DNA of 64,000 nt from positions 2,728,476 to 2,792,475 of the forward strand of contig OY762911.1 in the NCBI GenBank assembly GCA_963666565.1, given 5' to 3'. The position numbers and the translations under genes were made by a program. This document shows positions 109 through 41,418 of the stretch, in pieces. Each line of letters starts with the position of its first letter. Position 1 is the stretch's first letter. Source of the DNA: Thermoanaerobaculia bacterium. GTDB taxonomy: Bacteria > Acidobacteriota > Thermoanaerobaculia > Multivoradales > Multivoraceae. The notes below the pieces were generated by a model. It ran no database searches, had not been told where the DNA came from, and saw nothing but the letters and a program-made list of their open reading frames with translations.

Positions 109-1731
109 GTGCTGGAGGTCTCGGGATCGGCGGGCGAGGCGCGCGACCTGGGGGTTGTCGTGGCCCCGGCGTCGGCCTGGGTGTCCGGGACCGTCGTGAG
201 TCCCGAGTACGCTCCGGTTCCCGGCGCCAGGATCTCCTACCTGCGTCCGACCGAGTTCGGCGCCTTGTTGGCCAGAGCGATGGGGGGCGTGGTGGAGATC
301 ACGGCGAATGCCGATGGCTACTTCGAGATGCACGGCCTGGAACTCGGCCCGGCGAGCCTCCGCGTGGAGGCGGAGGGATTCGCTCCGCTGGAGTTCGAGG
401 TCGAGGCCGCGGCAATCGAGTGGGTCGATGCCGGCTTCGTCGAGCTCTCGCGCGGGCGCCGGATCACTGTGCGTTCCGACGTCGACGGCGGCGGGGTGAA
501 CCTCGATCCGGGTCCCGAGCACGATCCCCTGGGGCCGATGAAGGGCAAGGTGGTCGGCGGCGAGGCCGTGTTCGAGAACGTTCCCGAGGCGCCGCTGCGG
601 GTGCGGGTCATGGACGAGGGCGTGCCGGTCTGCGAGCGCCGCGAGGAGGCCGGAACCGGCGACGAGGCGATCCGGTGCGACCGGAGCACGGTGACGGTGA
701 CCGGTCTGGTGACGGTCGGAGGGCAGCCTGGAAAGGGGAGGTTGAGTTGGCTGTCGAAGGTGGAGAACCCGCAACCCGAAGGAGTCGGGAGAATCCTCGG
801 CTCGCCGCTTGGACGGACTCTGGGCGTTTCCAGCAAGCTCGAACTGACGGCGTTCCTCGACGGCGAGGGCCGCTATCGGCTGGAGTCGATGCTCCCGGGC
901 GAGTGGAACGTGACCCTCCGGTCGGAGACTGACGGAATGCAGGAGCGGCGCGAGATCACGGTGCCGGAGGCTCCAGGCGAGGAGGTAGTCGTCGACTTCC
1001 GCTACGGCGGCGTGGCGATCGAGGGAAGCGTCGTCGATGCCGAGGGACAGCCCGTTGCTCACGCGACGGTCGACGTCTTTCCGGACCGCCAGACAGTGGG
1101 GACGGGCCGGAACGGCCGCTACGAGATCATGGATCTGGCGCCGGGCGCGTACCAGTTGCGGGCGAGGTTCCAGCACTCCCGCTCCGACTTGGTGGACGTG
1201 GAGCTCCGCGACTACAACGACCTGCAGTCCGTCCAACTGCACCTGCGCGACGATCCCCCGGACGACGAACTCGCGGTCCGGCTCGCCGGCGCCGCCGGCG
1301 GCTTCTGCTTCGTCGAGATGGAAGGCGCCGGGCAGCGGACCGTCCGGATCGATGGCGGCGCGGCGAGCACGAAACTCACTCCGCCTCTCACCGACCGGGT
1401 CCGCGTCGCCTGCCAGGCCGACGGACGCTGGGTCCTCACCGGCTGGCGGGATCTCGAACCCGCGCTGGAGCGCGGTATCGACCTCGATCCCTTCGAGTCG
1501 GATTCCTCGATCGTCCTGACCGGCGAGCCGTCGACGGCGGCGGTGCAGGTGACCGGCCCGGGCGGCTGGGATCTAGGCTCTCTCCGCATCTGGTTCGGCG
1601 GCGCGACGACGTTCCCCGTCGGCGAGACGATTCCCAACCTGCCGGAGGGCGAGTACACCCTGCGCTGGGGGAACCAGGTGCGGACCGTGTGGACGGAACG
1701 GCGGCGGACCGCCGAGGTGGAGATCGAGTAA
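109..1731 (+). CDS. Secreted protein with repeated carboxypeptidase-regulatory-like (prealbumin-fold) domains. The in-window start at 109 is probably artefactual, and the gene probably continues upstream of the window.
   Basis: 540-aa ORF with repeated Gly/Val-rich beta-sandwich-like segments (GTVVSPEYAPVPGARISY...ADGYFEMHGLELGPASLRVEAEGF; GRYEIMDLAPGAYQLRA). Frame 1 is open from nt 49. The upstream frame-3 translation (FTVEGVFVAADGVTPAAS) also looks protein-like, which suggests a frameshift or window truncation near nt 46-70. Confidence 0.45.
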   Translation: MLEVSGSAGEARDLGVVVAPASAWVSGTVVSPEYAPVPGARISYLRPTEFGALLARAMGGVVEITANADGYFEMHGLELGPASLRVEAEGFAPLEFEVEAAAIEWVDAGFVELSRGRRITVRSDVDGGGVNLDPGPEHDPLGPMKGKVVGGEAVFENVPEAPLRVRVMDEGVPVCERREEAGTGDEAIRCDRSTVTVTGLVTVGGQPGKGRLSWLSKVENPQPEGVGRILGSPLGRTLGVSSKLELTAFLDGEGRYRLESMLPGEWNVTLRSETDGMQERREITVPEAPGEEVVVDFRYGGVAIEGSVVDAEGQPVAHATVDVFPDRQTVGTGRNGRYEIMDLAPGAYQLRARFQHSRSDLVDVELRDYNDLQSVQLHLRDDPPDDELAVRLAGAAGGFCFVEMEGAGQRTVRIDGGAASTKLTPPLTDRVRVACQADGRWVLTGWRDLEPALERGIDLDPFESDSSIVLTGEPSTAAVQVTGPGGWDLGSLRIWFGGATTFPVGETIPNLPEGEYTLRWGNQVRTVWTERRRTAEVEIE

Positions 1732-1765
1732 GAGTGCGGAGCCGGCCTGACGGCCGGCCCGTTTC

Positions 1766-1812
1766 TTTGCCGCCTTCGGCGGCGGCGGGTCAGAAGACCC
1801 GCGCACCCAGTA
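1766..1812 (-). repeat. Copy A of the triple-hairpin intergenic repeat, in reverse orientation, between convergent genes.
   Basis: The reverse complement of 1768-1809 reads tgggtgcgcgggtcttctgacccgccgccgccgaaggcggcaaag. This matches the cores of the copies at 11213, 21455, 34291 and 60464. Hairpin GCGGGTC/TTCT/GACCCGC at 1785-1802. Confidence 0.8.
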
Positions 1813-1817: not shown

Positions 1818-2636
1818 CTACTTGCCGCCGGTCACCGGCCACTTGGCCGGGTCGTGGTGCCTCAGGTAGTCCTTGCGGTCGATCCAGCCGAGGATCATCG
1901 ACCACGTCATCCAGCGCTTTTCGGGCAGGATGGCGAAGTAGACGTGGGCCACGGTGAGCGTCACCAGCACGACGCCGCCGACGCCGTGGAGGACGTAGAC
2001 CCAGCCCCAGCCGCCGTCGCCGAAGAACTTGTAGTCGTCCTGGGCCCAGAGCGGCTGCTCGATCCGCCACATCATCAGGATGCCGGTGACGATCGCGGCC
2101 ATGCCCGCCAGGGTCGCGGCGTGATGGAACATCTTCTGCGCCGCCGGGTACTTGCCGGGCTTGGCGGGCGCCTCGCCGCCGGTAACGGCCTTGCGCATCT
2201 CGCGCATCATGTCGCCGAGGTCCGAGAGCCCGACCCATACGTTCTTCAGGCTCTGGAAGAAGGTCGCGTGGACGATGTGGAAGACGATCGACGCGGTCAG
2301 GATCAGGCCGGTGATCCAGTGAATCTCGAGCCAGGCGAACTGCAGGCCGACCTTGGGCAGGAAGCCCGTGATCAGCAGCAGGATCATCGAGATCCCCATC
2401 ACGGCATGGAACAGGCGGGACGCCAGACTGTGCCGCTGGATCTTCTGCGGCAGACCCGGATCGTCGGGGGCGTTGGCGGCTGCCTTCTTCTCCTCGCCGA
2501 TCCAGCGGCGGCGGAGCGCCAGGTGGAGGATCAGGAACACGCCGCCGGCGATCAGCGCGATCCAGAACAGACTCCAGTCGATCCCCAGGAGGACGTCCTG
2601 TCCCCACGGGTTGGTGGCCCTCTGAAAGAGATTCAT
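1818..2636 (-). CDS. b-type cytochrome membrane subunit (Ni/Fe-hydrogenase / formate dehydrogenase gamma-like cytochrome b family). It is the last gene of the Mo-hydroxylase operon.
   Basis: 272 aa with multiple hydrophobic helices carrying conserved His residues (RHSLASRLFHAVMG, HWITG...FHIVH, FHHAATLAG, VLHGVGG, AHVYF). It lies 8 nt downstream of the FAD subunit on the same strand. Confidence 0.6.
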   Translation of the reverse strand: MNLFQRATNPWGQDVLLGIDWSLFWIALIAGGVFLILHLALRRRWIGEEKKAAANAPDDPGLPQKIQRHSLASRLFHAVMGISMILLLITGFLPKVGLQFAWLEIHWITGLILTASIVFHIVHATFFQSLKNVWVGLSDLGDMMREMRKAVTGGEAPAKPGKYPAAQKMFHHAATLAGMAAIVTGILMMWRIEQPLWAQDDYKFFGDGGWGWVYVLHGVGGVVLVTLTVAHVYFAILPEKRWMTWSMILGWIDRKDYLRHHDPAKWPVTGGK

Positions 2637-8872: not shown

Positions 8873-11200
8873 ATGGAGGCGACGGCAATGGCCAGCGGCG
8901 AGACAGGCAACGGAGTACTGGACGAGCAGACGCAAGCGGCGGCGGCGTTCATGGGCGCCGACCGGTTCCAGGGAATCAGGAGGCTTCACACCGCGCGCGA
9001 AGTGGCGGCGCAGCGGGGCTCGATTCCGCAGGACTACACGGTGGCGCGGGACGCCGCGGCGGCCTTCCACGCGCGGCTGAGGGACCTGTTCGACCGGAGG
9101 AAGTCGATCACCACGTTCGGCCCGTACTCGCCGGGCCAGGCGGTGGCGATGAAGCGGCGAGGGATCGAGGGCATCTACCTCGGTGGCTGGGCGACCTCGG
9201 CCAAGGGCTCGATCACCGAGGATCCGGGGCCGGATCTCGCCAGCTACCCCCTGAGCCAGGTGCCGGACGAGGCGGCGCCGATCGTCCGCGCCCTGCTGAC
9301 GGCCGACAAGAACCAGACCTTCAACCGTTCGCGGATGAGCGAGGCGGAGCGGCGGGCGAACCCGGCGACCGACTTCCGCCCGTTCATCGTCGCCGACGCG
9401 GACACCGGCCACGGCGGCGAACAGCATGTGCGCAACCTGATCCGCCGGTTCGTCGAGGTGGGCGTGCCCGGCTACCACATCGAGGACCAGAAGCCCGGGG
9501 TCAAGAAGTGCGGCCACCAGGCGGGCAAGGTCCTGGTGCCGCAGGACGAACAGAACAAGCGGCTGAACTCCGCCCGCTTCCAGTTGGACGTGATGGCGGT
9601 TGCCGGCCTCATCGTCGCCCGCACGGACTCGGAGGCCGCGACCTTCCTCGACGGCAACGGCGACGAGCGCGACCAGGCGTTCATTCTCGGCGCCACGAAC
9701 CTCGATCTGCCGAGCTGCAAGACGGCGACCCTGGCCATCCTGCGGCGGCTGAACGCCCTGGGCGCGGAAGACGTCCGCGGCCACGAGCTGTACGAGATCT
9801 CGGAAGCCGCCTACCGCCGCGCCGACCTCTGGCTGGAGGGCGCCGGCGTCTACGAGCGGCTCGAGTCCGCCTACGGCAAGGCGGCCGCGAACGGCGGCGC
9901 GGCGGTCGAGGCCGCGCTCGACGAGACGATGGCCTCCTTCCTCGACGCCTGGCAGGCGGAGGCCGGGCTCAAGACCTACCCGCAGGCCGTGGCGGAAGTC
10001 ATCGCCTTCCGGGAAGAGGAAGGCGCGGTCTTCGATCTCTCGGTGGAGGAGTGGCTGGAGTTCGCCCACTCCGTGCCGGTCGAGGAAGCGGCGGCCCGTG
10101 CGCGCAAGATGGGCATCAACCTGGTCTGGAACGCCGAGATCGCGCGCACCCCCGAGGGCTACTACCAGATCCGGGGCGGCATCGAGTACGCGATCTCGCG
10201 TTCCCTGCACGCCGCGCCCTACGCCGACCTGATCTGGATGGAGACGGCGACCGCCAACCTGAAGGACGCGCGCCGCTTCGCCGAGGCGATCCACGCCGTG
10301 TTCCCGGACCAGTTGCTGGCCTACAACCTCTCCCCCTCCTTCAACTGGGACACGACCGGCATGTCGGACGAGGAAATGAAGAAGTTCCCGGAGGAACTGG
10401 GCAGGCTCGGCTACGTCTTCAACTTCATTACCTACGGCGGCCACCAGGTCGACGGTCTGGCGGCGGAGGACTTCGCCACCGCCCTGCGCGAGGACGGCAT
10501 GTTGGCGCTGGCCCGGCTGCAGCGGAAGCTGCGTCTGGTGGGGTCGCCCTACCGGACGCCGCAGGCCCTCGTCGGCGGCGCCCGGCTCGACGGCGGGCTC
10601 TCGGCCGCGACCGGCCACACGGCGACGACCAAGGCGATGGGCAAGGGCTCGACCCACGTTCAGCACCTGGCGCAGACCGAGGTGCCGCCGCGGCTGCTCG
10701 AGGAGTGGCTCGACCTGTGGCGCGGCAAGTACGACGTCGACGAGCGCATGCGCGTGGAACTCCGGCCCCACGTCGCCGGTTCCGAGCTCCTGGAGCTCAA
10801 CGTCCTGGCTCGGAACGGACGCGACGAGTCGAAGGCGGCGAACGTCGTCTTCGCGCCCATCCGCGACCGCCGAGAGCGGATGATCCTCTCGGTGCGCGAC
10901 CAGAACACCTTCGACCTCGACCTGAGGAGGCGCCGCCTGATGGCGCTGATCCACGTGTTCCTGATCCACCGCTACGGCGCGGCGTGGGTCCACTACGTCA
11001 GTCCGACGGACGACAACCAGCACCAGACCCGGCGCATGATCGAACTCGGGATCTTCGAGACGGCGAACACCGAGGTCGGCGAGATCATCGTCGCGGCGGT
11101 CAACCGGGAACGGGTCCGCGAACTTGCGGGGCGGGATCGCGAGTCGCTGACGGCGCTGATCGAGAAGACCGAACCGGCGCCGGTGCGGGCCGCCTCGTGA
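8873..11200 (+). CDS. aceA: Isocitrate lyase, long form (about 770 aa, ICL2/AceAb-like).
   Basis: ICL catalytic signature KKCGHQAGK. Mg/substrate loop [12 protein letters not shown]. Length and central insertion typical of long-form ICLs. The alternative start MASGETG at 8888 is possible. Confidence 0.8.
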
Positions 11201-11212
11201 TCCGGGCCGCCC

Positions 11213-11293
11213 GCTGGGTGCGCGGGTCTTCTGACCCGCTGCCGCCGAAGGCGGGCAGGAGCACGCGCCGCGAAGCGGCTCCGCTTGGCGGCC
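11213..11293 (+). repeat. Copy B of the triple-hairpin intergenic repeat.
   Basis: ctgggtgcgcgggtcttctgacccgctgccgccgaaggcgggcaggagcacgcgccgcgaagcggc. Hairpins GCGGGTC-TTCT-GACCCGC, GCCGCC-GAAG-GCGG and GCCGC-GAA-GCGGC. It begins 13 nt after the ICL stop and ends 18 nt before the metalloprotease GTG start. Confidence 0.85.
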
Positions 11294-11310
11294 GGTTCCA
11301 TAGCCGCGTC

Positions 11311-13905
11311 GTGACCGCGATCTGGGCGCTGGCCTCGGTCCTCTCGATTCAGGGTCTTCAGGCGCAGGACGCCGGGGCGGAGGAGCCCCGGTCGATCTCG
11401 GAAGCCACCGGAGGCTTCGAGCATCTGCCCGGCTTTCTCGACCTGTTCTGGGACAGCCGGGGCGGCAGGCTGTTCCTCGAGATCGACTCCTTCGACGACG
11501 ACCTGCTGTACATCGAGTCGCTGTCGGCGGGCCTCGGGTCGAACGACATCGGCCTCGACCGCGGCCAGCTCGGCGGCACCCACCTGGCGCGGTTCGAGCG
11601 GGTCGGGCCGAAGGTCCTGCTGGTGCAGCAGAACACCCGTTATCGCGCGCTGAGCGACAACCCGGACGAGCGGCGCGCGGTCGCCGACGCCTTCGCGCGC
11701 TCGGTCCTCTGGGGCTTCCAGGTGGCGGCCGAGGACGAAGGCGGCGCGGTGCTGGTGGACGCGACGGACTTCGTGCTCCGGGACGCGCACGGCGTCGTGG
11801 CGCGGCTCCGGCAACGGGGGCAGGGGAGCTACCAGTTGGACGCCTCGCGCTCGGCGATTCACCGTCCCGGCGTCGCCGCCTTTCCGCGCAACTCGGAACT
11901 CGAGGGCACGCAGACCTTCACCCTGCGGCCTTCGGAGCGGGGGCCGGGCGCCTGGGTTCGCCAGGTCGCGCCTTCGCCCGAGGCGCTCACGTTGCGCGTC
12001 CGCCACTCCTTCGTCGCCCTGCCCGAACCCGGGTACGAACCCCGGCTCGCCGATCCCCGTGCCGGCTTCAACGTGACCGGTTATCTCGACTACGCGACTC
12101 CCATCGACCAGCCGATCGAGACCGTTTTCATCGACCGGCACCGCCTCGAGAAGCGTGACCCGAACGCGGAGCGAAGCGAACCGGTCGAACCGATCGTCTA
12201 CTACCTGGACCGGGGCGCGCCGGAGCCCATCCGTTCGGCGCTGCTCGACGGCGCCCGCTGGTGGAACGAGGCGTTCGAGGCCGCGGGCTACATCGACGCG
12301 TTCCGGGTCGAGCTGCTGCCGGAGGGGGCCGACCTGCTCGACGTGCGCTACAACGTGATCCAGTGGGTGCATCGGTCGACCCGCGGATGGTCCTACGGCG
12401 GCGGGGTCACCGACCCGCGCACCGGCGAGATCCTGAAGGGCCACGTGACGCTCGGTTCCCTGCGGGTGCGGCAGGACTTCCTGATCGCCCAGGGCCTCCT
12501 GTCGCCCTACGAGGACGCGGACTCGTCCACCGAGGCGCTCACCGAGATGGCGCTTGCCCGGCTGCGCCAGCTTTCGGCCCATGAAGTCGGCCACACGATC
12601 GGCCTGATGCACAACTTCGCCTCCAGCGTCGATGGACCGGACGGCCGCGAGTCGGTCATGGACTATCCGCATCCGCTGGCCAGGTTGCGCGAGGACGGCA
12701 TGATCGACCTGAGCGCGGCCTACGACGTGGGCATAGGCGAATGGGACAAGCGGGCGGTCCTCTACGGCTACGCCGACTTCCCCGACGGCGCCGACGAGGC
12801 GGCGGAACTCGACGCCATTCTGCGCGGGACGATCGACGCCGGGCTCCACTTCATCGCCGACGAGGATGCGCGGCCGGTGGGCGGTGCCCATCCGCTGGCC
12901 CACCTCTGGGACAACGGCCGTTCGGCGGCGGAAGAACTGCGGCGCATCCTGTCCGTGCGGCGCGCGGCGCTCGACCGGTTCTCCGAGCGCAGCGTCCGGG
13001 TCGGCGATCCGCTGTCCGCGCTGGAGGACGTCCTGACCCCGCTCTACCTGCTGCATCGCTACCAGATCGAGGCGGCGGCCAAGGCGGTCGGCGGGATCGA
13101 CTACAGCTACGCCGTCCGCGGCGACGGCCAGGCGCCGGTGTCGCTGCTGCCGCCGGCGATGCAGTTCGACGCGCTGGACGCGCTGCTCCGGACGGTCGAT
13201 CCGGCCGAACTCACGCTGCCCCCGGAGATCGTCGACCTGATCCCGCCGCCGTCTCCGGGTCGCGGCCGCGGGCGGGAGCAGCTTCCGTCGCGCGCCGGCC
13301 CGGCGTTCGACCCGGTGGCCGCGGCCGAGATGGCGGCCGACCTGACCTTCGGCATGATCTTCGACGGCGCGCGCGCCGCCCGGCTGGTCGATCACCGTTC
13401 CCGGGCGGGGGCGCAGCCGGGTCTCCGCGCCGTGATCGACCGGGTGCTGGCCGCTACCTGGCGCGCCGATCCGCATTCGGGCCTTGCCGGAGAAGTCGGT
13501 CGGGCCGTCGACTTCGCGGCCCTGCGGCGGCTGATGCTTCTGGCGGCCGGCGGGCGGGTCGGCGGCGGCGCGTCGGCCGCCGTTCCGACGAACTTCGACT
13601 GGCCGACCGTGCCCGAGCGGAACGGTTCGTTCCAGGCGCGGGCCGAGGCCCGGGCCGATCTGGCGGCCCTGGAGGGTTGGCTGGAAGCGAATCCGGCCGC
13701 CGACGACCCGGCGGAGGAGGCGCACCGCGGCTATGCCCGCTGGCTGATCGGGCGTTTTCTCGAGGATCCGGGCTCGGTGGAACTGCCGGCCCCGCTGCGC
13801 GCGCCCGACGGTTCGCCGATCGGCTGCAGCGTCGGCCCGGGCGGTCTGGCGTTCGCTTCGTGGAGCGCCGGGCCCGGGTGGTCTTCGGGGTCGGCGCCGC
13901 CGTGA
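11311..13905 (+). CDS. Secreted zinc-dependent metalloprotease (DUF4953 / DUF5117-type met-zincin family).
   Basis: HEVGHTIGLMHNF zincin motif plus a downstream SVMDYP. About 865 aa from a GTG at 11311, with a hydrophobic N-terminus (VTAIWALASVLSIQGLQAQ). This is the real C-terminal 2.6 kb of the 1465-aa track ORF. Start is uncertain. Confidence 0.7.
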   Translation: MTAIWALASVLSIQGLQAQDAGAEEPRSISEATGGFEHLPGFLDLFWDSRGGRLFLEIDSFDDDLLYIESLSAGLGSNDIGLDRGQLGGTHLARFERVGPKVLLVQQNTRYRALSDNPDERRAVADAFARSVLWGFQVAAEDEGGAVLVDATDFVLRDAHGVVARLRQRGQGSYQLDASRSAIHRPGVAAFPRNSELEGTQTFTLRPSERGPGAWVRQVAPSPEALTLRVRHSFVALPEPGYEPRLADPRAGFNVTGYLDYATPIDQPIETVFIDRHRLEKRDPNAERSEPVEPIVYYLDRGAPEPIRSALLDGARWWNEAFEAAGYIDAFRVELLPEGADLLDVRYNVIQWVHRSTRGWSYGGGVTDPRTGEILKGHVTLGSLRVRQDFLIAQGLLSPYEDADSSTEALTEMALARLRQLSAHEVGHTIGLMHNFASSVDGPDGRESVMDYPHPLARLREDGMIDLSAAYDVGIGEWDKRAVLYGYADFPDGADEAAELDAILRGTIDAGLHFIADEDARPVGGAHPLAHLWDNGRSAAEELRRILSVRRAALDRFSERSVRVGDPLSALEDVLTPLYLLHRYQIEAAAKAVGGIDYSYAVRGDGQAPVSLLPPAMQFDALDALLRTVDPAELTLPPEIVDLIPPPSPGRGRGREQLPSRAGPAFDPVAAAEMAADLTFGMIFDGARAARLVDHRSRAGAQPGLRAVIDRVLAATWRADPHSGLAGEVGRAVDFAALRRLMLLAAGGRVGGGASAAVPTNFDWPTVPERNGSFQARAEARADLAALEGWLEANPAADDPAEEAHRGYARWLIGRFLEDPGSVELPAPLRAPDGSPIGCSVGPGGLAFASWSAGPGWSSGSAPP

Positions 13906-15128: not shown

Positions 15129-15524
15129 TCGCCGGTCCTCGCCCGTTCCATGCCGGAACCGAGGCCGCGGAAGGGGCGGAGCGACCGGTTCGGTCCACTG
15201 GGGAGGTAGTCAGTCGACGTCACGCGAGGAGGAGCGCGCCGCTCCGCCCCCGACCCGGTTTACGCACCGGCACCGGACAGGGTTTCGGCACCGGAGCCGA
15301 CCAGCCCAGTCGGGTAAGGAGGGGTCGGCGCCCAGGTGCCTCTGAACGAGCGACGGCCGACGCCTTCCCGGAAGCCGACCCCGAACCGGAGCGAGTGAAG
15401 CGTAGCAAGCGCAACCCTGCCCATCTCCTCTGGAGCGCGCGCGTCACCTGGGTGCCGACCCCTCCTGACCCAAGACGGGCGGGTGCGTCCGACGCCGCTT
15501 CGCCGCGTCTTGCGGTGCCGCCTC

Positions 15525-17380: not shown

Positions 17381-18973
17381 ATGGCGAGCCGTTTCCCGGC
17401 CGGTTCCGGGCGCCTCCTGGCGATCGTCCTGAGTCTCGTAGCGGTGGGGTCCGGCGCGGTTGGCGCCCAGGTGTTGCGCCTGGACCGGATCGAGCTGCCG
17501 GACGGGTTCTCGATCGGCGTCTTCGCCGACGACGTTCGGGGCGCCCGGTCGCTCGCCCAGAGCCCGGTGGGAACCGTGTTCGTCGGCAGCCGGCCGGAGG
17601 GCGTCGTCTACGCGCTGGTCGATTCGGACGACGACGGCGAGGCGGACGGGACATACCGTCTGGCGTCCGGGCTGAACTCGCCGAACGGCGTCGCCTTCCG
17701 CAACGGCGACCTCTACGTGGCCGAGATCAGCCGGATACTCCGGTACGACGGCATCGAGAGCCGGCTGGACTCGCCTCCTCGGCCGGTCGTGGTCACCGAT
17801 CGTCTCCCAAGGGACGAGCATCACGGCTGGAAGTTCATCCGCTTCGGGCCGGACGGCCGGCTCTACGTGCCGGTCGGCGCTCCCTGCAACGTCTGCGACG
17901 AGCCCGACCCCTACAACTCGATCCTGCGCCTCGCCGCGAACGGCAGCTACGAGATCGTGGCGCGGGGAGTGCGGAACACAGTCGGCTTCGACTGGCATCC
18001 GGCGACCCGCCGGCTGTGGTTCACGGACAACGGCCGCGACTGGCTGGGCGACGACAGTCCGCCGGACGAGTTGAACGTGCTGACGTCCAACGGGCAGCAC
18101 TTCGGTTACCCGTACTGCCACGGCCGCGACATCGCCGACCCGGAGTACGGCAACCGGCGTTCCTGTTCGGAGTTCCGGCCGCCGGCCCAGGCGCTCGGGC
18201 CGCACGTCGCGGCGCTCGGGATGCGGTTCTACACGGGGACCGCGTTCCCGGAGCGCTACCGGGGCCAGATCTTCATCGCCGAGCACGGGTCGTGGAACCG
18301 GACAGACCCGATCGGCTACCGGGTCATGGTGGTCCGGCTGGACGGTAGCGGCCGGGCGGCCGGCTACGAGGAGTTCGCGACCGGCTGGCTCCAGGGGCGA
18401 AGCGCGTGGGGCCGGCCGGTGGACGTGATGGTGCGCGAGGACGGTTCGCTGCTCGTGTCGGACGACCGGCAGGGGGCGATCTACCGCATCGTGCACGAGT
18501 CGGCGGCACAACCCGACCCCGACCCGGATCCCGATCCGCCGGAGCCCGACCCCGATCCTCCGCCCGAACCGGATCCCGATCCGCCGACGGAAGGCCCGTG
18601 CGAGCCGGGACCCGACACCCTTTGCCTGTTGGACGGCCGCTTCGAACTGAAGGTCCGCTGGTGGACGGCGGGCGGCGAGCCGAACCCGGGCTACGTGGCG
18701 GAGTACGGCACGGCGGATTCCGGCATGTTCTGGTTCCTGGACGCGTCCAACTGGGAGATCCTGGTCAAGGTCCTGGACGGCTGCGCCCTGAACGGCCACG
18801 TCTGGGTCTACGGCGCCTCGACGACGGACCTGGGCTACTCGATCCATGTGAGGGACACGGCGACCGGCGAGGTGAGCGGCCCGTACCGCAACGAGCCCGG
18901 CCGACCCGCCCCGGCGATCACCGACAACCGCGCGTTCAGCCAGGCCTGCACGGCGTCCGCGTCGGTCCCGTAA
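17381..18973 (+). CDS. PQQ-dependent soluble sugar (glucose/sorbosone) dehydrogenase-family beta-propeller protein with a Pro-Asp repeat linker and an extra Cys-containing C-terminal domain of about 140 aa.
   Basis: GSDH-family motifs (LNSPNGVAF, HGWKFIRFGPDGRLYVPVGAPCNVC, HFGYPYCHG). Signal peptide. Linker PDPDPDPDPPEPDPDPPPEPDPDPP at about 18510-18590. The C-terminal region is absent from the paralog. Confidence 0.7.
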   Translation: MASRFPAGSGRLLAIVLSLVAVGSGAVGAQVLRLDRIELPDGFSIGVFADDVRGARSLAQSPVGTVFVGSRPEGVVYALVDSDDDGEADGTYRLASGLNSPNGVAFRNGDLYVAEISRILRYDGIESRLDSPPRPVVVTDRLPRDEHHGWKFIRFGPDGRLYVPVGAPCNVCDEPDPYNSILRLAANGSYEIVARGVRNTVGFDWHPATRRLWFTDNGRDWLGDDSPPDELNVLTSNGQHFGYPYCHGRDIADPEYGNRRSCSEFRPPAQALGPHVAALGMRFYTGTAFPERYRGQIFIAEHGSWNRTDPIGYRVMVVRLDGSGRAAGYEEFATGWLQGRSAWGRPVDVMVREDGSLLVSDDRQGAIYRIVHESAAQPDPDPDPDPPEPDPDPPPEPDPDPPTEGPCEPGPDTLCLLDGRFELKVRWWTAGGEPNPGYVAEYGTADSGMFWFLDASNWEILVKVLDGCALNGHVWVYGASTTDLGYSIHVRDTATGEVSGPYRNEPGRPAPAITDNRAFSQACTASASVP

Positions 18974-19006: not shown

Positions 19007-20176
19007 ATGCCGCGGTCCGCTTTCGCTCAACGTCTTCGCTTCGCCGCGCCCTGCGCGGCCGGTCTTCTCATCGCGCTCTCGGGGGGCGGCGTCGCTCTCG
19101 CCGCCGACGACGAGGTCCGCCTGGACCTGATCGAGCTTCCCGCCGGTTTCTCGATCGACGTCTTCGCCGCGGAGATCGACAACGCACGCTCGCTGGCCCA
19201 GAGCCCGTCCGGGACCGTCTTCGTCGGCACCGGACGCAGGGGCGGCGGCGTCGTTCATGCCGTCGTCGATTCGGACGGGGACGGAAGGGCCGACGACCGC
19301 TACCGCATCGGCGGCGACCTGAACTGGCCGAACGGCGTCGCCTTCCACGAAGGCGACCTGTACGTTGCGGAGATCAGCCGCGTACTTCGGTTCGCGGAGA
19401 TCGAGAGCCGGCTCGACTCACCGCCCGCGCCGGTCGTGGTCACTGCCGACCTGCCGGAGGAGACTCATCACGGCTGGAAGTTCATCCGTTTCGGTCCCGA
19501 CGGGCGGCTCTATGTGCCGGTGGGCGCCCCGTGCAACATCTGCGACGAAGGGGATCCCTTCGCGACGATCCTCCGGCTGGACGAGGCGGGCGGCTACGAG
19601 GTCGTCGCCCGCGGCGTGCGCAACACGGTCGGCTTCGACTGGCGTCCGAGCACGAGCGAACTGTGGTTCACGGACAACGGCCGGGACATGATGGGCGACG
19701 ACGTTCCGCCCGACGAACTGAACGTGCTGACGGAGGACGGCCAGCACTTCGGCTACCCCTACTGCCACGGTCAGGACATTCCCGACCCGGAGTTCGGCGA
19801 CCGGCGTTCCTGCGGCGAACTCGTGCCGCCGGCCATCGACCTCGGCCCGCACGTGGCGGCCGTGGGCATGCGCTTCTACCGGGGCGATGCCTTCCCTGAG
19901 CGCTACCGCGGGCAGATCTTCATCGCCGAACACGGTTCCTGGAACCGCAGCAACAAGATCGGCTACCGGGTCATGGTGGTTCACGTCGACCGGGACGGCC
20001 AGGCGACGGACTACGAGGAGTTCGCCACCGGTTGGCTCCAGGGCGAAGACTCGTGGGGCCGCCCGGTCGACGTGATGGAACGCGCCGACGGGTCGCTTCT
20101 CGTGTCGGACGACCAGCGCGGCGCGATCTACCGCATCGTCCATGACGGGTCCGCGGCCGCGGCCGCCGGAGAGTAG
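19007..20176 (+). CDS. PQQ-dependent soluble sugar dehydrogenase-family protein, a tandem paralog of the upstream gene.
   Basis: 389 aa, roughly 65-70% identical by eye to residues 1-370 of the 17381 gene (same motifs and order). Signal peptide MPRSAFAQRLRFAAPCAAGLLIALSGGGVALA. Confidence 0.75.
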   Translation: MPRSAFAQRLRFAAPCAAGLLIALSGGGVALAADDEVRLDLIELPAGFSIDVFAAEIDNARSLAQSPSGTVFVGTGRRGGGVVHAVVDSDGDGRADDRYRIGGDLNWPNGVAFHEGDLYVAEISRVLRFAEIESRLDSPPAPVVVTADLPEETHHGWKFIRFGPDGRLYVPVGAPCNICDEGDPFATILRLDEAGGYEVVARGVRNTVGFDWRPSTSELWFTDNGRDMMGDDVPPDELNVLTEDGQHFGYPYCHGQDIPDPEFGDRRSCGELVPPAIDLGPHVAAVGMRFYRGDAFPERYRGQIFIAEHGSWNRSNKIGYRVMVVHVDRDGQATDYEEFATGWLQGEDSWGRPVDVMERADGSLLVSDDQRGAIYRIVHDGSAAAAAGE

Positions 20177-20180
20177 GCGC

Positions 20181-21440
20181 GTGCCGCCGATCGATCCGAC
20201 CGTCGTCGAGGCGGCGCGAACTCGCTACGACGCGGCCCGCGCGGCCGGACTCGACCTCGACATGACCCGCGGCAAGCCGTCGCCGGAGCAGCTCGCCCGC
20301 TCTCACGGCCTGCTGCGGGCGGTCGAACGGGAGGACAGCCCCGCCGGCGACGGCACGGACTGCCGCAACTACGGCGGCGACCCGCGCGGCCTGCCGGAGA
20401 TGCGGACGATCTTCGGCGAGATCCTGGAGATCGATCCGGACCTCGTGTTCGTCGGCGGCAACGCGAGCCTGCAGTGGATGCACGACCTGGTCGTGCAGGC
20501 GATGCTGGTGGGCGTGCCGGGCGGCGATCCCTGGGGCGGACCGAGGCGCTCGACGCCGGTGAAGTTCCTCTGCCCCTGTCCCGGCTACGACCGGCACTTT
20601 GCCCTGCTCGAGCGCTTCGGCATCGAGATGCTGCCGATCGCGATGGGCGGCGACGGCCCCGACGTGGACGAGGTCGCGCGGCTGGCCGGCGAGGATCCGA
20701 ACGTCAAGGGGATGTTCTGCGTGCCGCGCTACAGCAACCCCACCGGCGTCACGTACTCGGACGACGTCGTCGAGGCGATCGCCGCCATGACGACCGCGGC
20801 GCCGGACTTCCGCGTGATTTGGGACGACGCCTACGCGCTGCACGCGTTCGAGGGCGAACCGGACCGGCTCGCCAACCTCTACGACCGCTGCGCCGCGCAC
20901 GGCAACGAGGACCGGCCCTTCCTCGTCACCTCGTTCTCGAAGGTCACCTTCGGCGGCGCCGGACTGGCCGCCGCGGCGGCGAGCCCCGCGAACGGCGACT
21001 GGATCCGGAGCTTCCGGTCGATCCAGACGATCGGGCCGAACAAGCTGAACCAGCTCGCCCACGCCCGCTTCTTCGACGGTTCCCTCTCCGCGGTGCGGGA
21101 TCACATGAAGGGGCACGCGGACCTGATCCGGCCGAAGTTCGAGACCGTGCTGCGCGTGCTCGACGAGACGCTGGGAGACCTCGGCGTGGCGACCTGGAGT
21201 CGGCCCCGGGGCGGCTACTTCGTCAGCCTGGACACGGAACCGGGCCGCGCGCGCGAAGTGGTCGAGATGGCGGGGGCCGCGGGAGTCAAGCTGACGCCCG
21301 CGGGCGCCACCTTCCCGTACGGCGTCGATCCGCAGGACCGGAACATCCGCATCGCGCCGACGCTGCCGGGCCTCTCCGAGATCGAGACCGCGACCCGGCT
21401 GCTCGCCGACTGCATCGTCCTCGCCAGCGCCAGCGGGTAA
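20181..21440 (+). CDS. PLP-dependent aminotransferase (class I/II fold).
   Basis: About 419 aa. SFSKVTFGGAGLAA (the likely PLP-lysine context). N-terminal GDPRGLPE. GTG start chosen just after the upstream stop, because the track ATG at 20142 overlaps the previous gene. Confidence 0.6.
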   Translation: MPPIDPTVVEAARTRYDAARAAGLDLDMTRGKPSPEQLARSHGLLRAVEREDSPAGDGTDCRNYGGDPRGLPEMRTIFGEILEIDPDLVFVGGNASLQWMHDLVVQAMLVGVPGGDPWGGPRRSTPVKFLCPCPGYDRHFALLERFGIEMLPIAMGGDGPDVDEVARLAGEDPNVKGMFCVPRYSNPTGVTYSDDVVEAIAAMTTAAPDFRVIWDDAYALHAFEGEPDRLANLYDRCAAHGNEDRPFLVTSFSKVTFGGAGLAAAAASPANGDWIRSFRSIQTIGPNKLNQLAHARFFDGSLSAVRDHMKGHADLIRPKFETVLRVLDETLGDLGVATWSRPRGGYFVSLDTEPGRAREVVEMAGAAGVKLTPAGATFPYGVDPQDRNIRIAPTLPGLSEIETATRLLADCIVLASASG

Positions 21441-21454: not shown

Positions 21455-21535
21455 GCTGGGTGCGCGGGTCTTCCGACCCGCTGCCGCCGAAGGCGGCCGG
21501 GAGAACGCCAGCCGTCGGCTCGGCGCCGTTTCGCG
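21455..21535 (+). repeat. Copy C of the triple-hairpin intergenic repeat, between convergent genes.
   Basis: ctgggtgcgcgggtcttccgacccgctgccgccgaaggcggccgggagaacgccagccgtcggctcggcgcc. First two hairpins conserved; third module variant GCCGTCGGCTCGGCGC. Confidence 0.8.
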
Positions 21536-21541: not shown

Positions 21542-22879
21542 CTAGTCGATGTAGCCGAGGCTCTTCAACTGGCGGACGTCCTCCTCGCTGAGGACGGTTC
21601 CGCTCTTCGCCTCGTACTTCGGCAGGTTCCGGTACCAGTTCACCAAGCGCCGGCCGAGCGGCGGCACGAGGTCGACGGGCGGCGCGGGCAGCGGCCGCTG
21701 CTCTTCCGGGTCGACCGTGAGGTCGAAGTACACCGTCCTGCGCTTCGAGAAGTCGTGGAGGACCTTGGCGCCGTCGAGTTCCATGCTGATCTGCAGGGGG
21801 TCCTCGTAGGGCGCGCTGCGGCGCGACTTCGCCATCAGGGCGCTGTGCTTGTCGCCGACGACGAAGCGGGGCCGCTCCTCGCCGCCGGGTTCTTCGCCGA
21901 CCGGCGCCAGGCTTCGCCCCTCGACGTTGGCGGGGGCCTCCCGTTCGAGCAGGTCGAGGACGGTCGGCAGCACGTCGACCACGCCGACCGCGGCCTCGAC
22001 GCGCCGGCCCGCGGGAACCCCTGGGCCCGCGAGGATCATGGGTATGCGCGCGTTGGGCCAGTGGACGTTCTTGCCGTGGCCCCAGTAGCCGTGCTCTCCC
22101 ATGCTCTCGCCGTGATCGCTCAGGAACAGGGTGTAGCGGGGGCCCGAGAGGAGCTCCTCGATCGCCTCGGACAGCCGGCCCAGCCAGTGGTCGACGTAGT
22201 TCACCTCCGACTGGTAGCGCCAGCGGCGCTGCCAACCGCTCGTGCGCTCGGCGCGGGGCGGCGGCGGGGGCGTGAAGCCGGTCCGTTCCAGGTACGGGTC
22301 GTGCGGGTCCGAGAAGTGGACCCAGAGAAAGAGCGGGCGCCCGCTCCGCTCCTCGTCGCCGGCGCGGACGCGCAGCCAGCGCTCCGCTGCCTTGGCGACG
22401 CTGTCGGCATGGCGCTCCATCACGCCGACGGCGTTGCGGGCCCGGTCGAACTCCTCGTCGTAGTGGTCGAAACCGCGGTCGAGGCCGACCAGGTCGGCCC
22501 GCAGCGTCCAGTTCGAGATGAAGGCGGCCGACTCGTAGCCCGCTTCGCCCAGGATCTCGGCCAGGACCGGGACGTCGGTTCGCATCCGCTGGGCGTTTCG
22601 CCGCGACCCGTGGGTCGGCGGGTAGAGCGACGTGAAGATCGAGGCGAAGGCGGGGCCGGTCTTGCCGATCGTCGTGTGCGCGTCCTCGAACAGCACGCCC
22701 GCCGCCGCGAGGTCGTCGATCGCGGGCGTCTCGGCGGTTTCGGCGCCGTAAGCCCCGATGGCGTCGGCGCGCAGGGTGTCCACCGAGAGCAGCACGAAGT
22801 GCGGCTCGGCCGCGGAAAGCGGGGCGCAGAACGCCGCCGCCAGCGCCGTCGCGACGAGCAGGCGTCGTGCGGCGTTCAC
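21542..22879 (-). CDS. Sulfatase / alkaline-phosphatase-superfamily enzyme with signal peptide. It may be a phospho-group transferase rather than a true sulfatase.
   Basis: 445 aa from a GTG at 22879. N-terminal FVLLSVDTLRAD metal-site motif. No obvious C/S-x-P-x-R formylglycine motif. It is the C-terminal part of the 1504-aa artefact ORF. The start overlaps the upstream stop (GTGA). Confidence 0.6.
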   Translation of the reverse strand: MNAARRLLVATALAAAFCAPLSAAEPHFVLLSVDTLRADAIGAYGAETAETPAIDDLAAAGVLFEDAHTTIGKTGPAFASIFTSLYPPTHGSRRNAQRMRTDVPVLAEILGEAGYESAAFISNWTLRADLVGLDRGFDHYDEEFDRARNAVGVMERHADSVAKAAERWLRVRAGDEERSGRPLFLWVHFSDPHDPYLERTGFTPPPPPRAERTSGWQRRWRYQSEVNYVDHWLGRLSEAIEELLSGPRYTLFLSDHGESMGEHGYWGHGKNVHWPNARIPMILAGPGVPAGRRVEAAVGVVDVLPTVLDLLEREAPANVEGRSLAPVGEEPGGEERPRFVVGDKHSALMAKSRRSAPYEDPLQISMELDGAKVLHDFSKRRTVYFDLTVDPEEQRPLPAPPVDLVPPLGRRLVNWYRNLPKYEAKSGTVLSEEDVRQLKSLGYID

Positions 22880-27575: not shown

Positions 27576-28781
27576 ATGACCGACCAACCTTCGATCCCCG
27601 CTCCGGCTTCCAACGCTCCGATCCGCCGCCGCGGACCGCGACTCCCGCGTTGCGGCCTCGCGATCGCGACGCTGGCCGCGGCCGCGTTGCTCGCGGCGCC
27701 CGCTTCCGCCGAGTTCGACGAGAGCCACCGCTTCGACGCCCGTTCGTTGCAGGTCACCAACCTGATCGGCAAGGTGACGATCGGACAGGCGACCGGCGAC
27801 GAGTTCGAGGTCGCCGTCTCCGTGCGCGGCGCCGATGGCCTGCCGCGGAACATCGCGATCGAGCAGGAGCGCGGCTCGCGCGCCCGGCTGGACGTCGTCT
27901 TCCCGGTCGACGACGAGCGCCGTTTCGTCTACCCGGAGTTCAGCCGCCGGCGCGCCCAGCTCTGGTTCCGGGAAGGCCGCTCACGCAGCCTGCTGGGGGA
28001 GATCCTGCGGTCCGTTTCGGGCCGCCGGATCCGGGTCGAACGGAGGGGCAGCGGCATGGAAGTCTGGGCCGACGTGACGATCCTCGTGCCCGCCGGCGCG
28101 TCGCTGAAGCTCGAGCACGGCGCCGGCGACGTGGAGATCGAAGGCGTCGCGGCCGACCTCGACGTGGACGTGAAGGCCGGCGCGATGGAGGCGGCCGGGC
28201 TGGACGGCCAGGTCGGGCTCAGAGTCGGCAGCGGCCGGCTGAACGTGAGCGACGCGCGTGGCGAGCTGAATCTCGACACGGGCAGCGGCGGGGTTTCGCT
28301 GGACGGCTTCGAGGGCGGCGCGCTCGAGATCGACACGGGCAGCGGGTCCGTCGAAGTGGCGGAAGCGACCGCGGAGACCGTGGAGATCGACACGGGCAGC
28401 GGCGGCGTGAGAGTGAACGGGGCCGAGGCCGAGATGCTCGCGATCGACACGGGCAGCGGCAGCGTCCGGGTCGCCGCCGCCGCGGTCGACGCCGCGGAGA
28501 TCGACACCGGGAGCGGCAGTGTCCGTCTCGCGCTCGACCGGATGGGCGGCGGGAACTTCGACATCGACACCGGCTCGGGCGGCATCTCCGTGCTCGTTCC
28601 CGAGGACGTGTCCGCCCGGTTCGACATCGACGTCGGCTCCGGCGGCATCGAGGTCGACGTGCCGATCGCCAGAACGCTGCACAAGAGCCGGGGCGAGATG
28701 CGGTTCGTGGCCGGCGATGGCGACGCGAACGTGGTTCTGGACACCGGCTCCGGCGGCGTCCGGATCGCGACCGTGGACTGA
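27576..28781 (+). CDS. DUF4097-family repeat protein (putative adhesin-like / beta-helical) with signal peptide.
   Basis: 401 aa. At least 8 tandem units of about 19-20 aa with consensus (E/D)IDTGSG(G/S)V.V. Signal peptide [20 protein letters not shown]. Confidence 0.65.
28250..28770 (+). repeat. Intragenic tandem repeats of about 57-60 nt encoding the DTGSG units.
   Basis: atcgacacgggcagcggc, or variants of it, recurs at about 28265, 28328, 28385, 28442, 28499, 28558, 28623 and 28736. Confidence 0.7.
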
Positions 28782-34177: not shown

Positions 34178-34290
34178 CGGCTTCTCCTTGAGAGCGTGTC
34201 GGGTCAGTCTACTATTGGCCTCTCATGGAAGTGGTCGGCAAGAGCGGTATCGGCTTGACGGCGGGCCGGCGCGATGTTCCGGCCGCCCTG

Positions 34291-34356
34291 TCGGTGCGCC
34301 GGTCTTCCGACCCGCCGCCGAAGGCGGCGAGGACTTCGCACCGCGAAGCGGCGCCC
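34291..34356 (+). repeat. Copy D of the triple-hairpin intergenic repeat, between divergent DUF3604 genes.
   Basis: tcggtgcgccggtcttccgacccgccgccgaaggcggcgaggacttcgcaccgcgaagcggcgcc. Its 3' flank supplies GAGGAGG 6 nt upstream of the GTG start at 34371. Confidence 0.8.
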
Positions 34357-34370
34357 GAGGAGGACTCGTT

Positions 34371-36956: not shown

Positions 36957-37256
36957 CGCTGGAGGTGGCACCCGCCGGCCCGGGGCCTGAGGGGGAGGGC
37001 CCAGCGGACGTTCGCGCTTTCGGAGTTTGGGGGACGACTGCGCTCACTCCGCTTCACTCGCTCCGGTCGGGCGTCGGTTGGGGGAATGACGTCGGGCGTC
37101 GCTCGTTCAGAGGCCGCTGGGACCCTCCGCCTCAGACCCCGGACCGGCTGCACGTCGTCAGCCCCGGACCGGCTGGACGTCGTCGGGCGGTCGGACCGAA
37201 CGCCGGCTGGCACGAACGAGAGGACGGAGGTGCTGGTGGGCGATTTGGGACGTTCC

Positions 37257-37325
37257 ACACTGGGTGCGCAGGCGTCCTCGCCGGCTGCCGCCGGAGGCGG
37301 CCAGTAGACGGGCCGCGAAGCGGCC
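37257..37325 (+). repeat. Copy F of the triple-hairpin intergenic repeat. It is diverged in hairpin 1.
   Basis: ctgggtgcgcaggcgtcctcgccggctgccgccggaggcggccagtagacgggccgcgaagcggcc. Hairpins 2 and 3 are intact. Confidence 0.65.
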
Positions 37326-38667: not shown

Positions 38668-39201
38668 ATGAGACGCCCGCCCGCAGGAGCGGAGAAGGTG
38701 CGCGCCCTGATGCGGCGCCTGGGCGGTGCGGCCCGCAGTCCCGGGCGGATCTATCTGGTGGGGGGCGCCTCCGCCGTCCTCGTCGGCTGGCGGGAGACGA
38801 CGATCGATGTCGACCTCAAGCTCGATCCGGAGCCGGAGGGCGTCTTCGCCGCGATCGCCGGGGCGAAGGAGGCGCTTCGGGTGAACGTGGAACTCGCGGC
38901 GCCCGACGACTTCCTGCCCGCGCTGCCCGGGTGGCGCGACCGCAGTCCGTTCGTCGCGCGTCACGGGGTTGTCGATTTCTTTCACTACGACTTCCACGCC
39001 CAGGCTCTCGCGAAGATCGAACGGGCCCACGCCCAGGACCTGGCCGACGTGGAGGCGATGCTGGAGCGCGGCCTGGTCACGGCGCCGCGGCTCCTGGATC
39101 TGTTTCGACGGATCGAGCCTGAACTGGAACGCTATCCGGCAGTCGAGCCCAGGTGTCTTCGCCTGAGGGTGCTTCGCTACGCCGGCGAGGACGGGGCATG
39201 A
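38668..39201 (+). CDS. Hypothetical protein with a nucleotidyltransferase-fold-like N-terminus.
   Basis: 177 aa. GGASAVLVGWRETTIDVDL resembles the hG[GS]...DhD NTase signature. Family not recognised. Confidence 0.35.
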   Translation: MRRPPAGAEKVRALMRRLGGAARSPGRIYLVGGASAVLVGWRETTIDVDLKLDPEPEGVFAAIAGAKEALRVNVELAAPDDFLPALPGWRDRSPFVARHGVVDFFHYDFHAQALAKIERAHAQDLADVEAMLERGLVTAPRLLDLFRRIEPELERYPAVEPRCLRLRVLRYAGEDGA

Positions 39202-39605
39202 CCGGGCCGGAAACGGCTGCGCTCGACCGCGTGCCGGCGACGCTCCCGGGCGCGGATCTCGTGGCGGCGGGGATCGAGGCGCTGCGGCGGGGAGAGACGA
39301 CGGAGGAGGCTCTGCTGGTTCTGATCGGCGCCTGGCGGCTCCGCGCCGCCGGTCTGGATGTTCCGGCGGCGCCGGACCTCGAGACGTCGCCCGAGATCGC
39401 CCTCTACGGGATGATCGCCGCCAGGCGCTCGGCCGACGCGCACTCCCGTTACAACGCGCTTGTCCGTCGCCTGGTCAGCTTCGAGCGCGCGTTGGAGAGC
39501 CGGCCTTCGGCCGGCGCGTCTTTCCGGCCGCCTTCGGCGGCAGCCGGCGAGGACGCCGGCGCACCCAGTGTGCGGCCCCGTTCCCCGCGCGACAGCGCAG
39601 CCTGA
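39198..39605 (+). CDS. Hypothetical protein, translationally coupled to the upstream gene.
   Basis: 135 aa from the ATG at 39198. ATGA overlap with the upstream stop. No recognisable motif. Confidence 0.3.
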   Translation: MTGPETAALDRVPATLPGADLVAAGIEALRRGETTEEALLVLIGAWRLRAAGLDVPAAPDLETSPEIALYGMIAARRSADAHSRYNALVRRLVSFERALESRPSAGASFRPPSAAAGEDAGAPSVRPRSPRDSAA

Positions 39606-41282: not shown

Positions 41283-41418
41283 GCGGTCAGGGTAACAGCG
41301 TCGGCGGAGCGGGATTCGCGGCACGCGCTTGCGGTGCGGCGGGGTCGAGGCCGAACACGGCGCCGGCAATGGTCCGCGAGCGCCGGTCGGCGTTAGCATC
41401 GCCCTCGATGGGTGGTCC

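Follow-up and report, generated by a model that had tools for sequence, protein, structure and literature searches.

A box-tagged hairpin repeat with REP/BIME-like population behaviour at gene boundaries of a Thermoanaerobaculia genome

A stretch of 64,000 nucleotides from a Thermoanaerobaculia bacterium of the Acidobacteriota (contig OY762911.1 of assembly GCA_963666565.1, positions 2,728,476 to 2,792,475; hereafter the window) carries seven copies of a short, GC-rich repeat, among them the one at 11213-11279(+) from which this analysis set out. The repeat is a tagged hairpin with the population behaviour of repetitive extragenic palindromes (REPs) and bacterial interspersed mosaic elements (BIMEs). 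Copy number, intergenic location, bias toward the 3′ ends of genes, occurrence in both orientations, dimers and arrays, mosaic forms, compensatory changes, and turnover all bear out the REP/BIME-like family that an earlier note, made from the letters of the window alone, had proposed. To the fuller reading, in which the family has been spread by an enzyme specific for an unpaired box and its adjoining hairpin, with a secondary use of the hairpins at the 3′ ends of messages, we assign a probability of roughly 60%. The element is a fresh example of the REP type, distinguished by the unusual length of its tag and by accessory hairpins with GNA triloops, and not a new kind of system.

Read 5′ to 3′ on the element strand, a copy opens with a weakly conserved run of two to four bases (in many cases CA or CACA) and continues into the box, CTGGGTGCGC, whose first eight nucleotides are unpaired and whose final GC forms the base of the first hairpin, H1, a 7-bp stem with a 4-nt YYCY loop. 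A single base separates H1 from H2 (consensus GCCGCC-GNA-GGCGGC), which is followed by a purine-rich spacer of ~10 nt ending in ACG, by a third GC hairpin, H3, of variable sequence, and by a short tail, usually (T/A)CC. The basic unit consists of the nearly invariant, unpaired box, (CA)CTGGGTGC, and H1, together 26–28 nt in length, to which H2 and H3 are accessory. Copy 2, the flagged one, displays the whole series of box, H1, H2, spacer, and H3 (nhmmer E 2.5e-15; 74.3 bits). Its box, CTGGGTGCGC, lies at 11214-11223(+), each position being kept in 144–150 of 150 model hits; H1, GCGGGTC-TTCT-GACCCGC, at 11222-11239(+), in a stem with double compensatory changes at four of its seven pairs and with pairing in 99% of cells; H2, GCCGCC-GAA-GGCGGG, a G-N-A triloop hairpin with a mismatched outermost pair, at 11241-11255(+); and H3, GCCGC-GAA-GCGGC, containing the GCGAAGC mini-hairpin motif, at 11267-11279(+), in a stem where 7/7 pairs covary. 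The copy sits between an isocitrate-lyase-family gene (8873-11200(+)), 13 nt past its stop codon, and a Met-zincin gene (11311-13905(+)).

H1 occurs in discrete, self-complementary versions (GCGGGTC/GACCCGC, GCCGGCG/CGCCGGC, GCGGACC/GGTCCGC, GCGGGCC/GGCCCGC, and GCCGACG/CGTCGGC). The H2 loop, which the earlier note had read as a conserved GAAG, is a G-N-A triloop closed by a C-G pair, the middle base being free (GAA 40, GCA 26, GGA 11, and GTA 5 among 86 copies); the loop of H3 is most often GAA or a tetraloop. Both C-GNA-G and GCGAAGC are exceptionally stable DNA mini-hairpin motifs (PMC13037366, PMC3201870). The complementary strand reads T-N-C at the loop, the G-N-A signature being present on the box strand only, while the three hairpins themselves fold on both strands, as RNA and as single-stranded DNA, several copies folding well as RNA (z down to −5).

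Around this core, ~10–15% of copies are bracketed by GCATGGAACYGGCCGCC / GGCGGCCRGTTCCATGC. The recurrent arm GGCGGCCRGTTCCATGC was never found without a core and therefore marks a "long form" subfamily, to which copy 2 contributes a 3′ outer arm, GGCGGCCGGTTCCAT, at 11287-11301(+), an arm that recurs only beside cores, and a partial 5′ partner arm at ~11200-11211. Strong outer pairing is seen in about 10 of 86 copies, copy 2 included; as a general part of the element the outer palindrome was rejected, since it performs overall no better than cross-paired controls (p = 0.18). A closing helix, in which the box would pair 3′ of H3 and create a four-way junction, appears in some single-sequence folds and was likewise rejected, RNAalifold on 88 copies giving it no support. 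In one further subfamily ATCGTC stands directly ahead of the H3 stem, and CGTC is confined to that place and that subfamily.

Relatives were gathered from a scan of one genome per species for a pattern of box, 14 unconstrained bases, and the beginning of H2, which is present in at least 113 stretches. Genuine copies occur in 70 stretches among the matches listed, all from about 20 Acidobacteriota metagenome-assembled genomes (MAGs) labeled Thermoanaerobaculia, Candidatus Multivorans (order Multivoradales), or "Holophagales", and the chromosomes that carry the element include OZ242353.1, OZ246956.1, OZ242040.1, and OZ244786.1; the remaining listed stretches match by chance, within genes of unrelated bacteria, and 10 of 10 pattern matches in viral contigs proved to be chance by the covariance model. 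Selected loci totaling 594 kb from these ~20 genomes yielded at least 151 covariance-model hits, of which ~150 were aligned. In a MAFFT alignment of 88 copies, 92.6% of the cells of the three helices are paired, against 20–54% when the 3′ partners are slid, and the covariation score was reached by none of 500 shuffles. A structure-guided alignment of 150 hits, which leans toward the model and so gives somewhat favorable pairing figures, has 97.2% of cells paired, against 20–48% with slid partners, and changes on both sides at 15 of 20 pairs (7/7 in H3). The three consecutive stem-loops described in the earlier note do fold, and the compensatory changes it suggested looking for are found in H1 and H3; H3, for its part, is a hairpin in most copies whose sequence is not conserved. 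Box positions are kept in at least 96% of the 150 hits, across many genomes, and the conservation of the box far exceeds that of the stems. A conserved, unpaired box beside a compensating stem would be expected where a protein recognizes both sequence and structure.

Within the window itself, which has a G+C content of ~70%, a profile hidden Markov model built from the 88 copies (nhmmer) returned exactly seven matches (E 1.5e-9 to 2.3e-17) and none other below E 0.1. A second search, with a covariance model holding all three hairpins, recovered the same seven at 42–88 bits and a degenerate eighth at 23.6 bits, above noise of at most 19 bits. All six copies previously listed are among the seven; a repeat search of the window recovers their coordinates together with the copy that had been missed, on the minus strand near 39.5 kb (39497-39568(-)). 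The window has five exact occurrences of the 10-mer CTGGGTGCGC, all of them inside copies; a box-like match at 29504 is a chance one inside a coding region. With genes called from codon-position G+C and Pfam, ~7.6% of the window is intergenic, and the location of all seven copies in gaps has P ~1e-8, in keeping with the gene-boundary placement noted earlier, to which the first 21 nt of copy 7, being coding, form a partial exception.

Copy 1 (1739-1811(-); nhmmer E 6.9e-17; 87.1 bits) was originally delimited as 1766-1812; it is real and extends to 1739, H3 having been left out. It fills the convergent gap between a gene at 109-1731(+) and a cytochrome b561 gene at 1818-2636(-), with 7 nt to spare on each side. 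Copy 3 (21456-21517(+); E 3.6e-14; 69.4 bits) lies in the convergent gap between an aspartate aminotransferase gene (20142-21440(+)) and a sulfatase gene (21542-22873(-)). Copy 4 (34290-34351(+); E 1.5e-9; 42.3 bits) has the minor box variant GTCGGTGCGC and a deletion of 3 nt ahead of H2, and occupies a divergent gap with the likely start of the gene 34361-36956(+) 9 nt downstream. A sigma-70-like promoter match, TTGAGA-16-TACTAT, stands at 34188-34215(+), ~75 nt upstream; if that promoter is real, copy 4 sits within the 5′ leader of the gene. Copy 5 (37259-37325(+); E 4.7e-13; 67.5 bits), with a class B-type H1, is found in a co-directional gap, 303 nt after the same gene and 54 nt before a HemN-like gene (37380-38654).

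The best match of the window is copy 6 (39497-39569(-); E 2.3e-17; 87.9 bits), with the class B H1 GCCGGCG-TCCT-CGCCGGC, 52 nt past the stop of a TPR gene (39621-41825(-)). On the opposite strand it is crossed by an open reading frame (ORF) of 150 aa (39153-39605(+)) with coding-like third-position G+C periodicity and without a Pfam match, which is probably spurious. Copy 7 (60463-60532(+); E 1.9e-11; 52.8 bits) lies in a convergent gap, its box and the 5′ half of H1 supplying the last seven codons and the TGA of a DUF2834 gene (59651-60484(+)); the Pfam domain of that gene ends at residue 266 of 277, the overlap amounts to 21 nt (60464-60484), and three genes in all, this one and two in other loci, end at a TGA within the H1 loop. 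The degenerate eighth copy (54864-54966(-); covariance model 23.6 bits, E ~2e-4; nhmmer E 0.11) is intergenic as well and has the box variant GTCGGTGCGC and the H1 CCGGC-TCTCT-GGCCGG. The genes flanking the window copies are unrelated metabolic and housekeeping genes, and the family therefore has no link to any particular pathway. Extrapolated from 7–8 per 64 kb, copies per genome appear to number in the hundreds.

Among 171 box+H1 units in the 594 kb there are 105 singletons, 31 inverted pairs, and 6 tandem pairs, the inverted pairs being divided into 16 that face outward, spaced ~125–166 nt, and 15 that face inward; no outward dimer occurs in the window. Outward pairs form composites of ~150 nt, in the order box-H1-H2-(ATCGTC)-H3, a GC-rich segment, and H1′-box′, and so carry an inverted box+H1 at both ends; the inverted repeat extends 2–6 nt past the box, and no target-site duplication was detected at composites (mean longest direct repeat 1.04 vs. 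1.16 in controls). Truncated and mosaic forms are present as well. In one locus a WD40-repeat gene lies exactly between two facing three-hairpin copies (L015 3696-4952). The genes between clustered copies (L013, L094, L015) were examined and set aside: they encode unrelated proteins, metabolic or repeat-containing.

Between genomes 83–96% identical, a copy at an orthologous site may be present in both, missing from one, inverted, or replaced by one of another class. The gap that holds copy 3 has, in locus L071, an inverted version with the other H1 class and without H2, between flanks 83% identical, and L071 also carries a full copy at a site that is empty in the window; a full copy in L045 corresponds to a box only at the syntenic site of L106, and a composite in L075 to a single inverted copy in L080 with its box at the same position. 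Counted over syntenic locus pairs, in numbers that are small, sites with flank identity of at least 92% carry the copy in the same orientation in 8 cases, inverted in 1, and absent in 3; at 86–92% the figures are 4, 2, and 2, and below 86% they are 0, 2, and 2. At one site with flanks ~96% identical (L003 6667-7274 and L094 6982-7109), an inverted element dimer stands opposite a ~600-nt insert with two small ORFs that resemble HicB/HicA toxin–antitoxin proteins in a translation read by eye.

A metagenome scan requiring only box+H1 matched at least 120 stretches, and among the matches listed 161 of 178 units lack H2 and have other modules instead, which identifies box+H1 as the common denominator and the three-hairpin form as the elaboration of one lineage. 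The triple-hairpin module first described is thus the usual form in the Thermoanaerobaculia lineage without being the basic unit, and the lineage specificity suggested for it does not extend to box+H1, which occurs with other modules in metagenome contigs. One alternative module is ATCCGGCGC-GAA-GCGCCGG, again a GNA-triloop hairpin, often within an outer palindrome GCGCGGCAGAA / TTCTGCCGCGC; another form without H2 reads TTCTGAG..ACG-CGCCGC-GAA-GCGGCG and is also present in L071 and L045. Bare box+H1 units make up tandem arrays with periods of 33 and 47 nt (L172 8211-8335, L138 116-235, L150 967-1253), some such arrays being on lower-GC contigs.

With flanking genes classed by codon-position G+C, the genome loci and the metagenome sample together give 61 copies in convergent, 20 in divergent, and 95 in co-directional gaps, against 11, 11, and 28 background gaps of these types in the window (22/22/56%; p = 1.7e-5), and the box often begins 0–30 nt past a stop codon. 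Orientation in co-directional gaps is 26 sense to 16 antisense in the genome loci and 31 to 22 in the independent metagenome sample, that is, 57 to 38 combined (p = 0.064), ~40% being antisense. Among ~2790 pairs, ~97% of which are Watson–Crick, mismatches comprise 19 G·T and 27 A·C, with no excess of G·U. Wobble pairs not being favored, the stems are preserved as true palindromes that can be read on either strand.

Taken together, we consider it most probable that the units would have been spread and maintained by an enzyme that reads box and hairpin on single-stranded DNA of the box strand, most likely a HUH/Y1 transposase resembling the REP-associated tyrosine transposases (RAYTs), making no target-site duplication. 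Recombination between copies would then reshuffle the modules, and the stable GC hairpins, once placed, may be tolerated, or may be recruited to serve as barriers where mRNAs end or to terminate transcription with no U-tract, a use that would let copies build up after stop codons and in convergent gaps. The lack of target-site duplication, the strand-specific loop, and the independence from transcription fit recognition of single-stranded DNA by enzymes of the RAYT/IS200-type HUH group (PMC3733652, PMC6006769). Among published systems, surveys report no tagged REPs in Acidobacteria, where RAYT-like genes with long flanking inverted repeats are reported (PMC3733652), and describe an uncommon Y1 enzyme, of class 3, with atypical hairpins at its flanks (PMC6006769). 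The obvious candidates for the box-reading enzyme would be these two.

Several observations weigh against this reading. Motif regular expressions from PMC6006769, tblastn with RAYT and IS200 queries, and ORF clustering, applied to ~1.4 Mb of element-bearing DNA (594 kb + 805 kb), turned up no HUH/Y1 transposase. This absence is weak counter-evidence: with DNA drawn from many genomes, and thinly from each, and with RAYTs typically present as a single copy, well under one or two matches would be expected. The tag differs from both of those described for REPs, GTAG and CGTC (PMC3733652). The invariance of box and H2 is in part a matter of ascertainment, the search patterns and the model having required both. 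No syntenic pair offers a clean filled-versus-empty site with exact ends, variable gaps differing beyond simple insertion. The mild sense bias in co-directional gaps (60:40, p = 0.064) may be real. Finally, strand-specific insertion by an HUH enzyme might predict an orientation bias relative to GC skew, and with this crude proxy for the replication strand the counts, 39 vs. 29, are not significantly different.

A bolder version of the same idea, which we put forward tentatively and think rather less likely to be right than wrong, is that the CTGGGTGCGC-tagged hairpin represents a third tagged-REP superfamily, distributed across several uncultured high-GC lineages, namely the Thermoanaerobaculia and the hosts of the metagenome contigs, and kept by an unrecognized single-copy nuclease. 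That nuclease might be an unusual Y1/HUH enzyme, for instance of class 3 or of the kind associated with terminal inverted repeats, both noted in Acidobacteria, or else a non-HUH enzyme. In the literature searched there is no description of the box sequence in a relevant context, of "Candidatus Multivorans," or of such REPs in Acidobacteria.

The alternative that fares best, although we regard it as unlikely in its own right, holds that the copies are kept mainly as terminators without U-tracts, or as hairpins protecting mRNA 3′ ends, in a high-GC lineage devoid of classical terminators, and were spread by duplication or gene conversion and with no dedicated transposase. Placement speaks for it: the preponderance of convergent over divergent gaps (p = 6e-6), boxes 0–30 nt past stop codons, copies that fill entire convergent gaps, and stems that, as true palindromes, fold in either orientation. 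Classical terminator sites, with a hairpin and a U-tract, are not enriched in the window (12 vs. ~19 expected). A terminator scan flagged a U-tract on the element strand of 0/7 window copies, in accord with the earlier statement that none is followed by one; on the opposite strand the statement fails for copy 1, whose H3 hairpin is there followed by CCGTTTCTTT, the sole strand that the scan called. Such a proposal leaves unexplained why a 10-nt box should be kept in at least 96% of hits, and it does not account for composites with inverted ends, for tandem arrays of bare units, for copies that, like copy 4, stand in a divergent gap or a 5′ leader, or for differing versions at one orthologous gap. 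It is compatible with enzyme-driven spread as a secondary role, and since copies favor gene 3′ ends and classical terminators are lacking, a host role as terminator or stabilizer at mRNA 3′ ends is plausible.

Less probable still, in our estimation with perhaps little more than an outside chance, is that box and hairpin together form a binding site for a host chromosomal protein, such as a nucleoid-associated protein or a topoisomerase, and are kept for chromosome organization. Precedent exists in the BIMEs of E. coli, which bind IHF, gyrase, and Pol I, and the conservation of the box far above that of the stems would suit such a site, as would the association of one box with different accessory modules across lineages. 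No candidate protein has come to light, the copies lack regular spacing, and neither the 3′-end bias nor the turnover is specifically predicted.

The small structured RNA that the earlier note had entertained, acting on one strand as a 3′-UTR element, a small RNA, or a protein-binding RNA, is now disfavored and strikes us as very improbable. The strong covariation of H1 and H3, the strand-specific G-N-A loop, the mild excess of sense copies (57 vs. 38), and the good RNA folds of several copies (z down to −5) are what such an RNA would show. Against it stand the 40% of co-directional copies that are antisense, G·U mismatches that do not exceed A·C (19 vs. 27), modules that are freely lost, swapped, inverted, and arrayed, and a closing helix that the alignment does not support. 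The Rfam covariance search suggested at the outset found no family matching the copies: at the gathering threshold no repeat copy in the window was matched, the sole match there being a SAM riboswitch, and in five loci with copies even a permissive threshold, E up to 1, yielded no match. Equally improbable is descent from insertion sequences as miniature inverted-repeat transposable elements (MITEs), deletion derivatives moved by a DDE transposase through terminal inverted repeats, for although the ~150-nt composites and the "long forms" do have such repeats, direct repeats at the ends of the composites are no longer than in controls, most units are singletons with a single "end," and no recurrent transposase gene was found in 807 ORFs from element-bearing loci.

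Comparison with described systems places the family close to, and yet apart from, the known REPs. Published REPs are tagged stem-loops that form head-to-head or tail-to-tail dimers and follow ORFs, in gaps of the co-directional and convergent types (PMC3733652), and the present element shares their generic properties in being a palindromic unit of 26–28 nt, within the 20–40 bp usual for REPs, that is high-copy and extragenic, with 3′-end bias and inverted dimers. Like the REP/REPIN-RAYT systems of Pseudomonas and Enterobacteria (PMC3116915, PMC3337134, PMC3733652), it combines a GC-rich hairpin with an unpaired end tag, is extragenic, appears by the above extrapolation to reach hundreds of copies per genome, has far more inverted dimers than tandem pairs, leaves no target-site duplication, and shows compensating stem variation and persistence across related species with local turnover. 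In contrast to these, its tag measures 8–10 nt (CTGGGTGC/GC) instead of the GTAG tetranucleotide; its stems are perfect where classical REPs are imperfect palindromes; its units are mostly singletons with accessory hairpins where REPINs are symmetric doublets; and no linked RAYT, in REPIN-RAYT systems a single-copy gene flanked by REPs or REPINs, was found in the ~1.4 Mb sampled, the Acidobacteriota not being among the phyla reported to have tagged REPs.

The CGTC-tagged REPs (PMC3733652) resemble it as tagged stem-loops without an identified dedicated transposase and with a short pyrimidine-rich tail after the stem; their stems are 8–9 bp long and start with A-T pairs, their loops are 4–5 nt, and here the tag beside H1 is CTGGGTGC. 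With the BIMEs of E. coli it has in common a mosaic of a palindromic unit and short motifs in variable combination, orientation, and cluster size at gene 3′ ends; the sequence is unrelated, and the accessory modules here are GNA-triloop hairpins. As MITEs are, it is ~70–160 nt long, non-coding, and intergenic, with terminal inverted repeats in its composites; unlike them it lacks target-site duplications, is mostly single-ended, and has no related autonomous insertion sequence in the sampled DNA. Intrinsic (Rho-independent) terminators likewise place GC-rich hairpins just past stop codons, in their case with a U-tract directly after the hairpin, without a 5′ unpaired box, and without one sequence common to hundreds of sites that also include divergent gaps. 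Nor do the copies resemble integron attC sites, which belong to arrays of same-direction cassettes next to intI: the copy ends have no GTTRRRY / RYYYAAC core sites, and copies stand in both orientations among unrelated housekeeping neighbors.

Other repeats share the window. A second intergenic family of ~200 nt is represented at 15275-15515(+) and at 36950-37170(-), the latter immediately upstream of copy 5, with relatives at L051 7757-7995, L005 6690-6935, L033 2940-3155, and L014 4085-4280. It has an outer stem of ~35 bp with compensatory changes at 14 pairs (six sequences) and a strongly conserved core, CTCTGAACGAGCGACG ... ACCGGAGCGAGTGAAGCGGAG..AGCGC; in 4/6 cases a three-hairpin copy lies 45–95 nt from the same end, and Rfam returned nothing for the family, which may be either a structured RNA or a MITE. 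An inverted-repeat element at 42504-42689 (arms 42510-42545 and 42655-42690) is 77% identical to L102 3769-3958, which abuts a three-hairpin copy, and a 62-nt repeat with the internal palindrome GCTTGCGCCG...CGGCGCAAGC has two copies, 48638-48699 and 61112-61173, 73% identical and both near gene boundaries. Repetition within genes is seen in the neighboring paralogs 17381-18973 and 19007-20176, which are 75–84% identical over several stretches at an offset of ~1647 nt, and in the gene 27576-28781, with a 114-nt tandem duplication at 28273-28500 and further 42-nt repeats. The SAM riboswitch (RF00162, 44012-44141(-), 72.2 bits) is upstream of the gene 42705-43886(-).

What is known of this kind of repeat is left unchanged by the element, which serves as a marker of gene borders in a class of Acidobacteriota that has been little studied and is so far known from MAGs only. 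It nevertheless has practical consequences: by supplying the stop and C-terminal codons of some genes, the repeat affects gene calling and MAG assembly and, if ignored, gives rise to false ORFs, and its population of copies could serve strain typing and the study of element persistence in these genomes. The most interesting remaining point is the identity of the box-reading enzyme, for the finding of which the long, near-invariant tag is a clean handle. If that enzyme is RAYT-like, REPIN-RAYT biology would be extended to a new phylum and a new class of tag; and if the hairpin does represent a third superfamily, it would reveal a long-lived REPIN-RAYT-like partnership outside the Proteobacteria, one in which the recognition tag is much longer and the accessory hairpins have GNA triloops.

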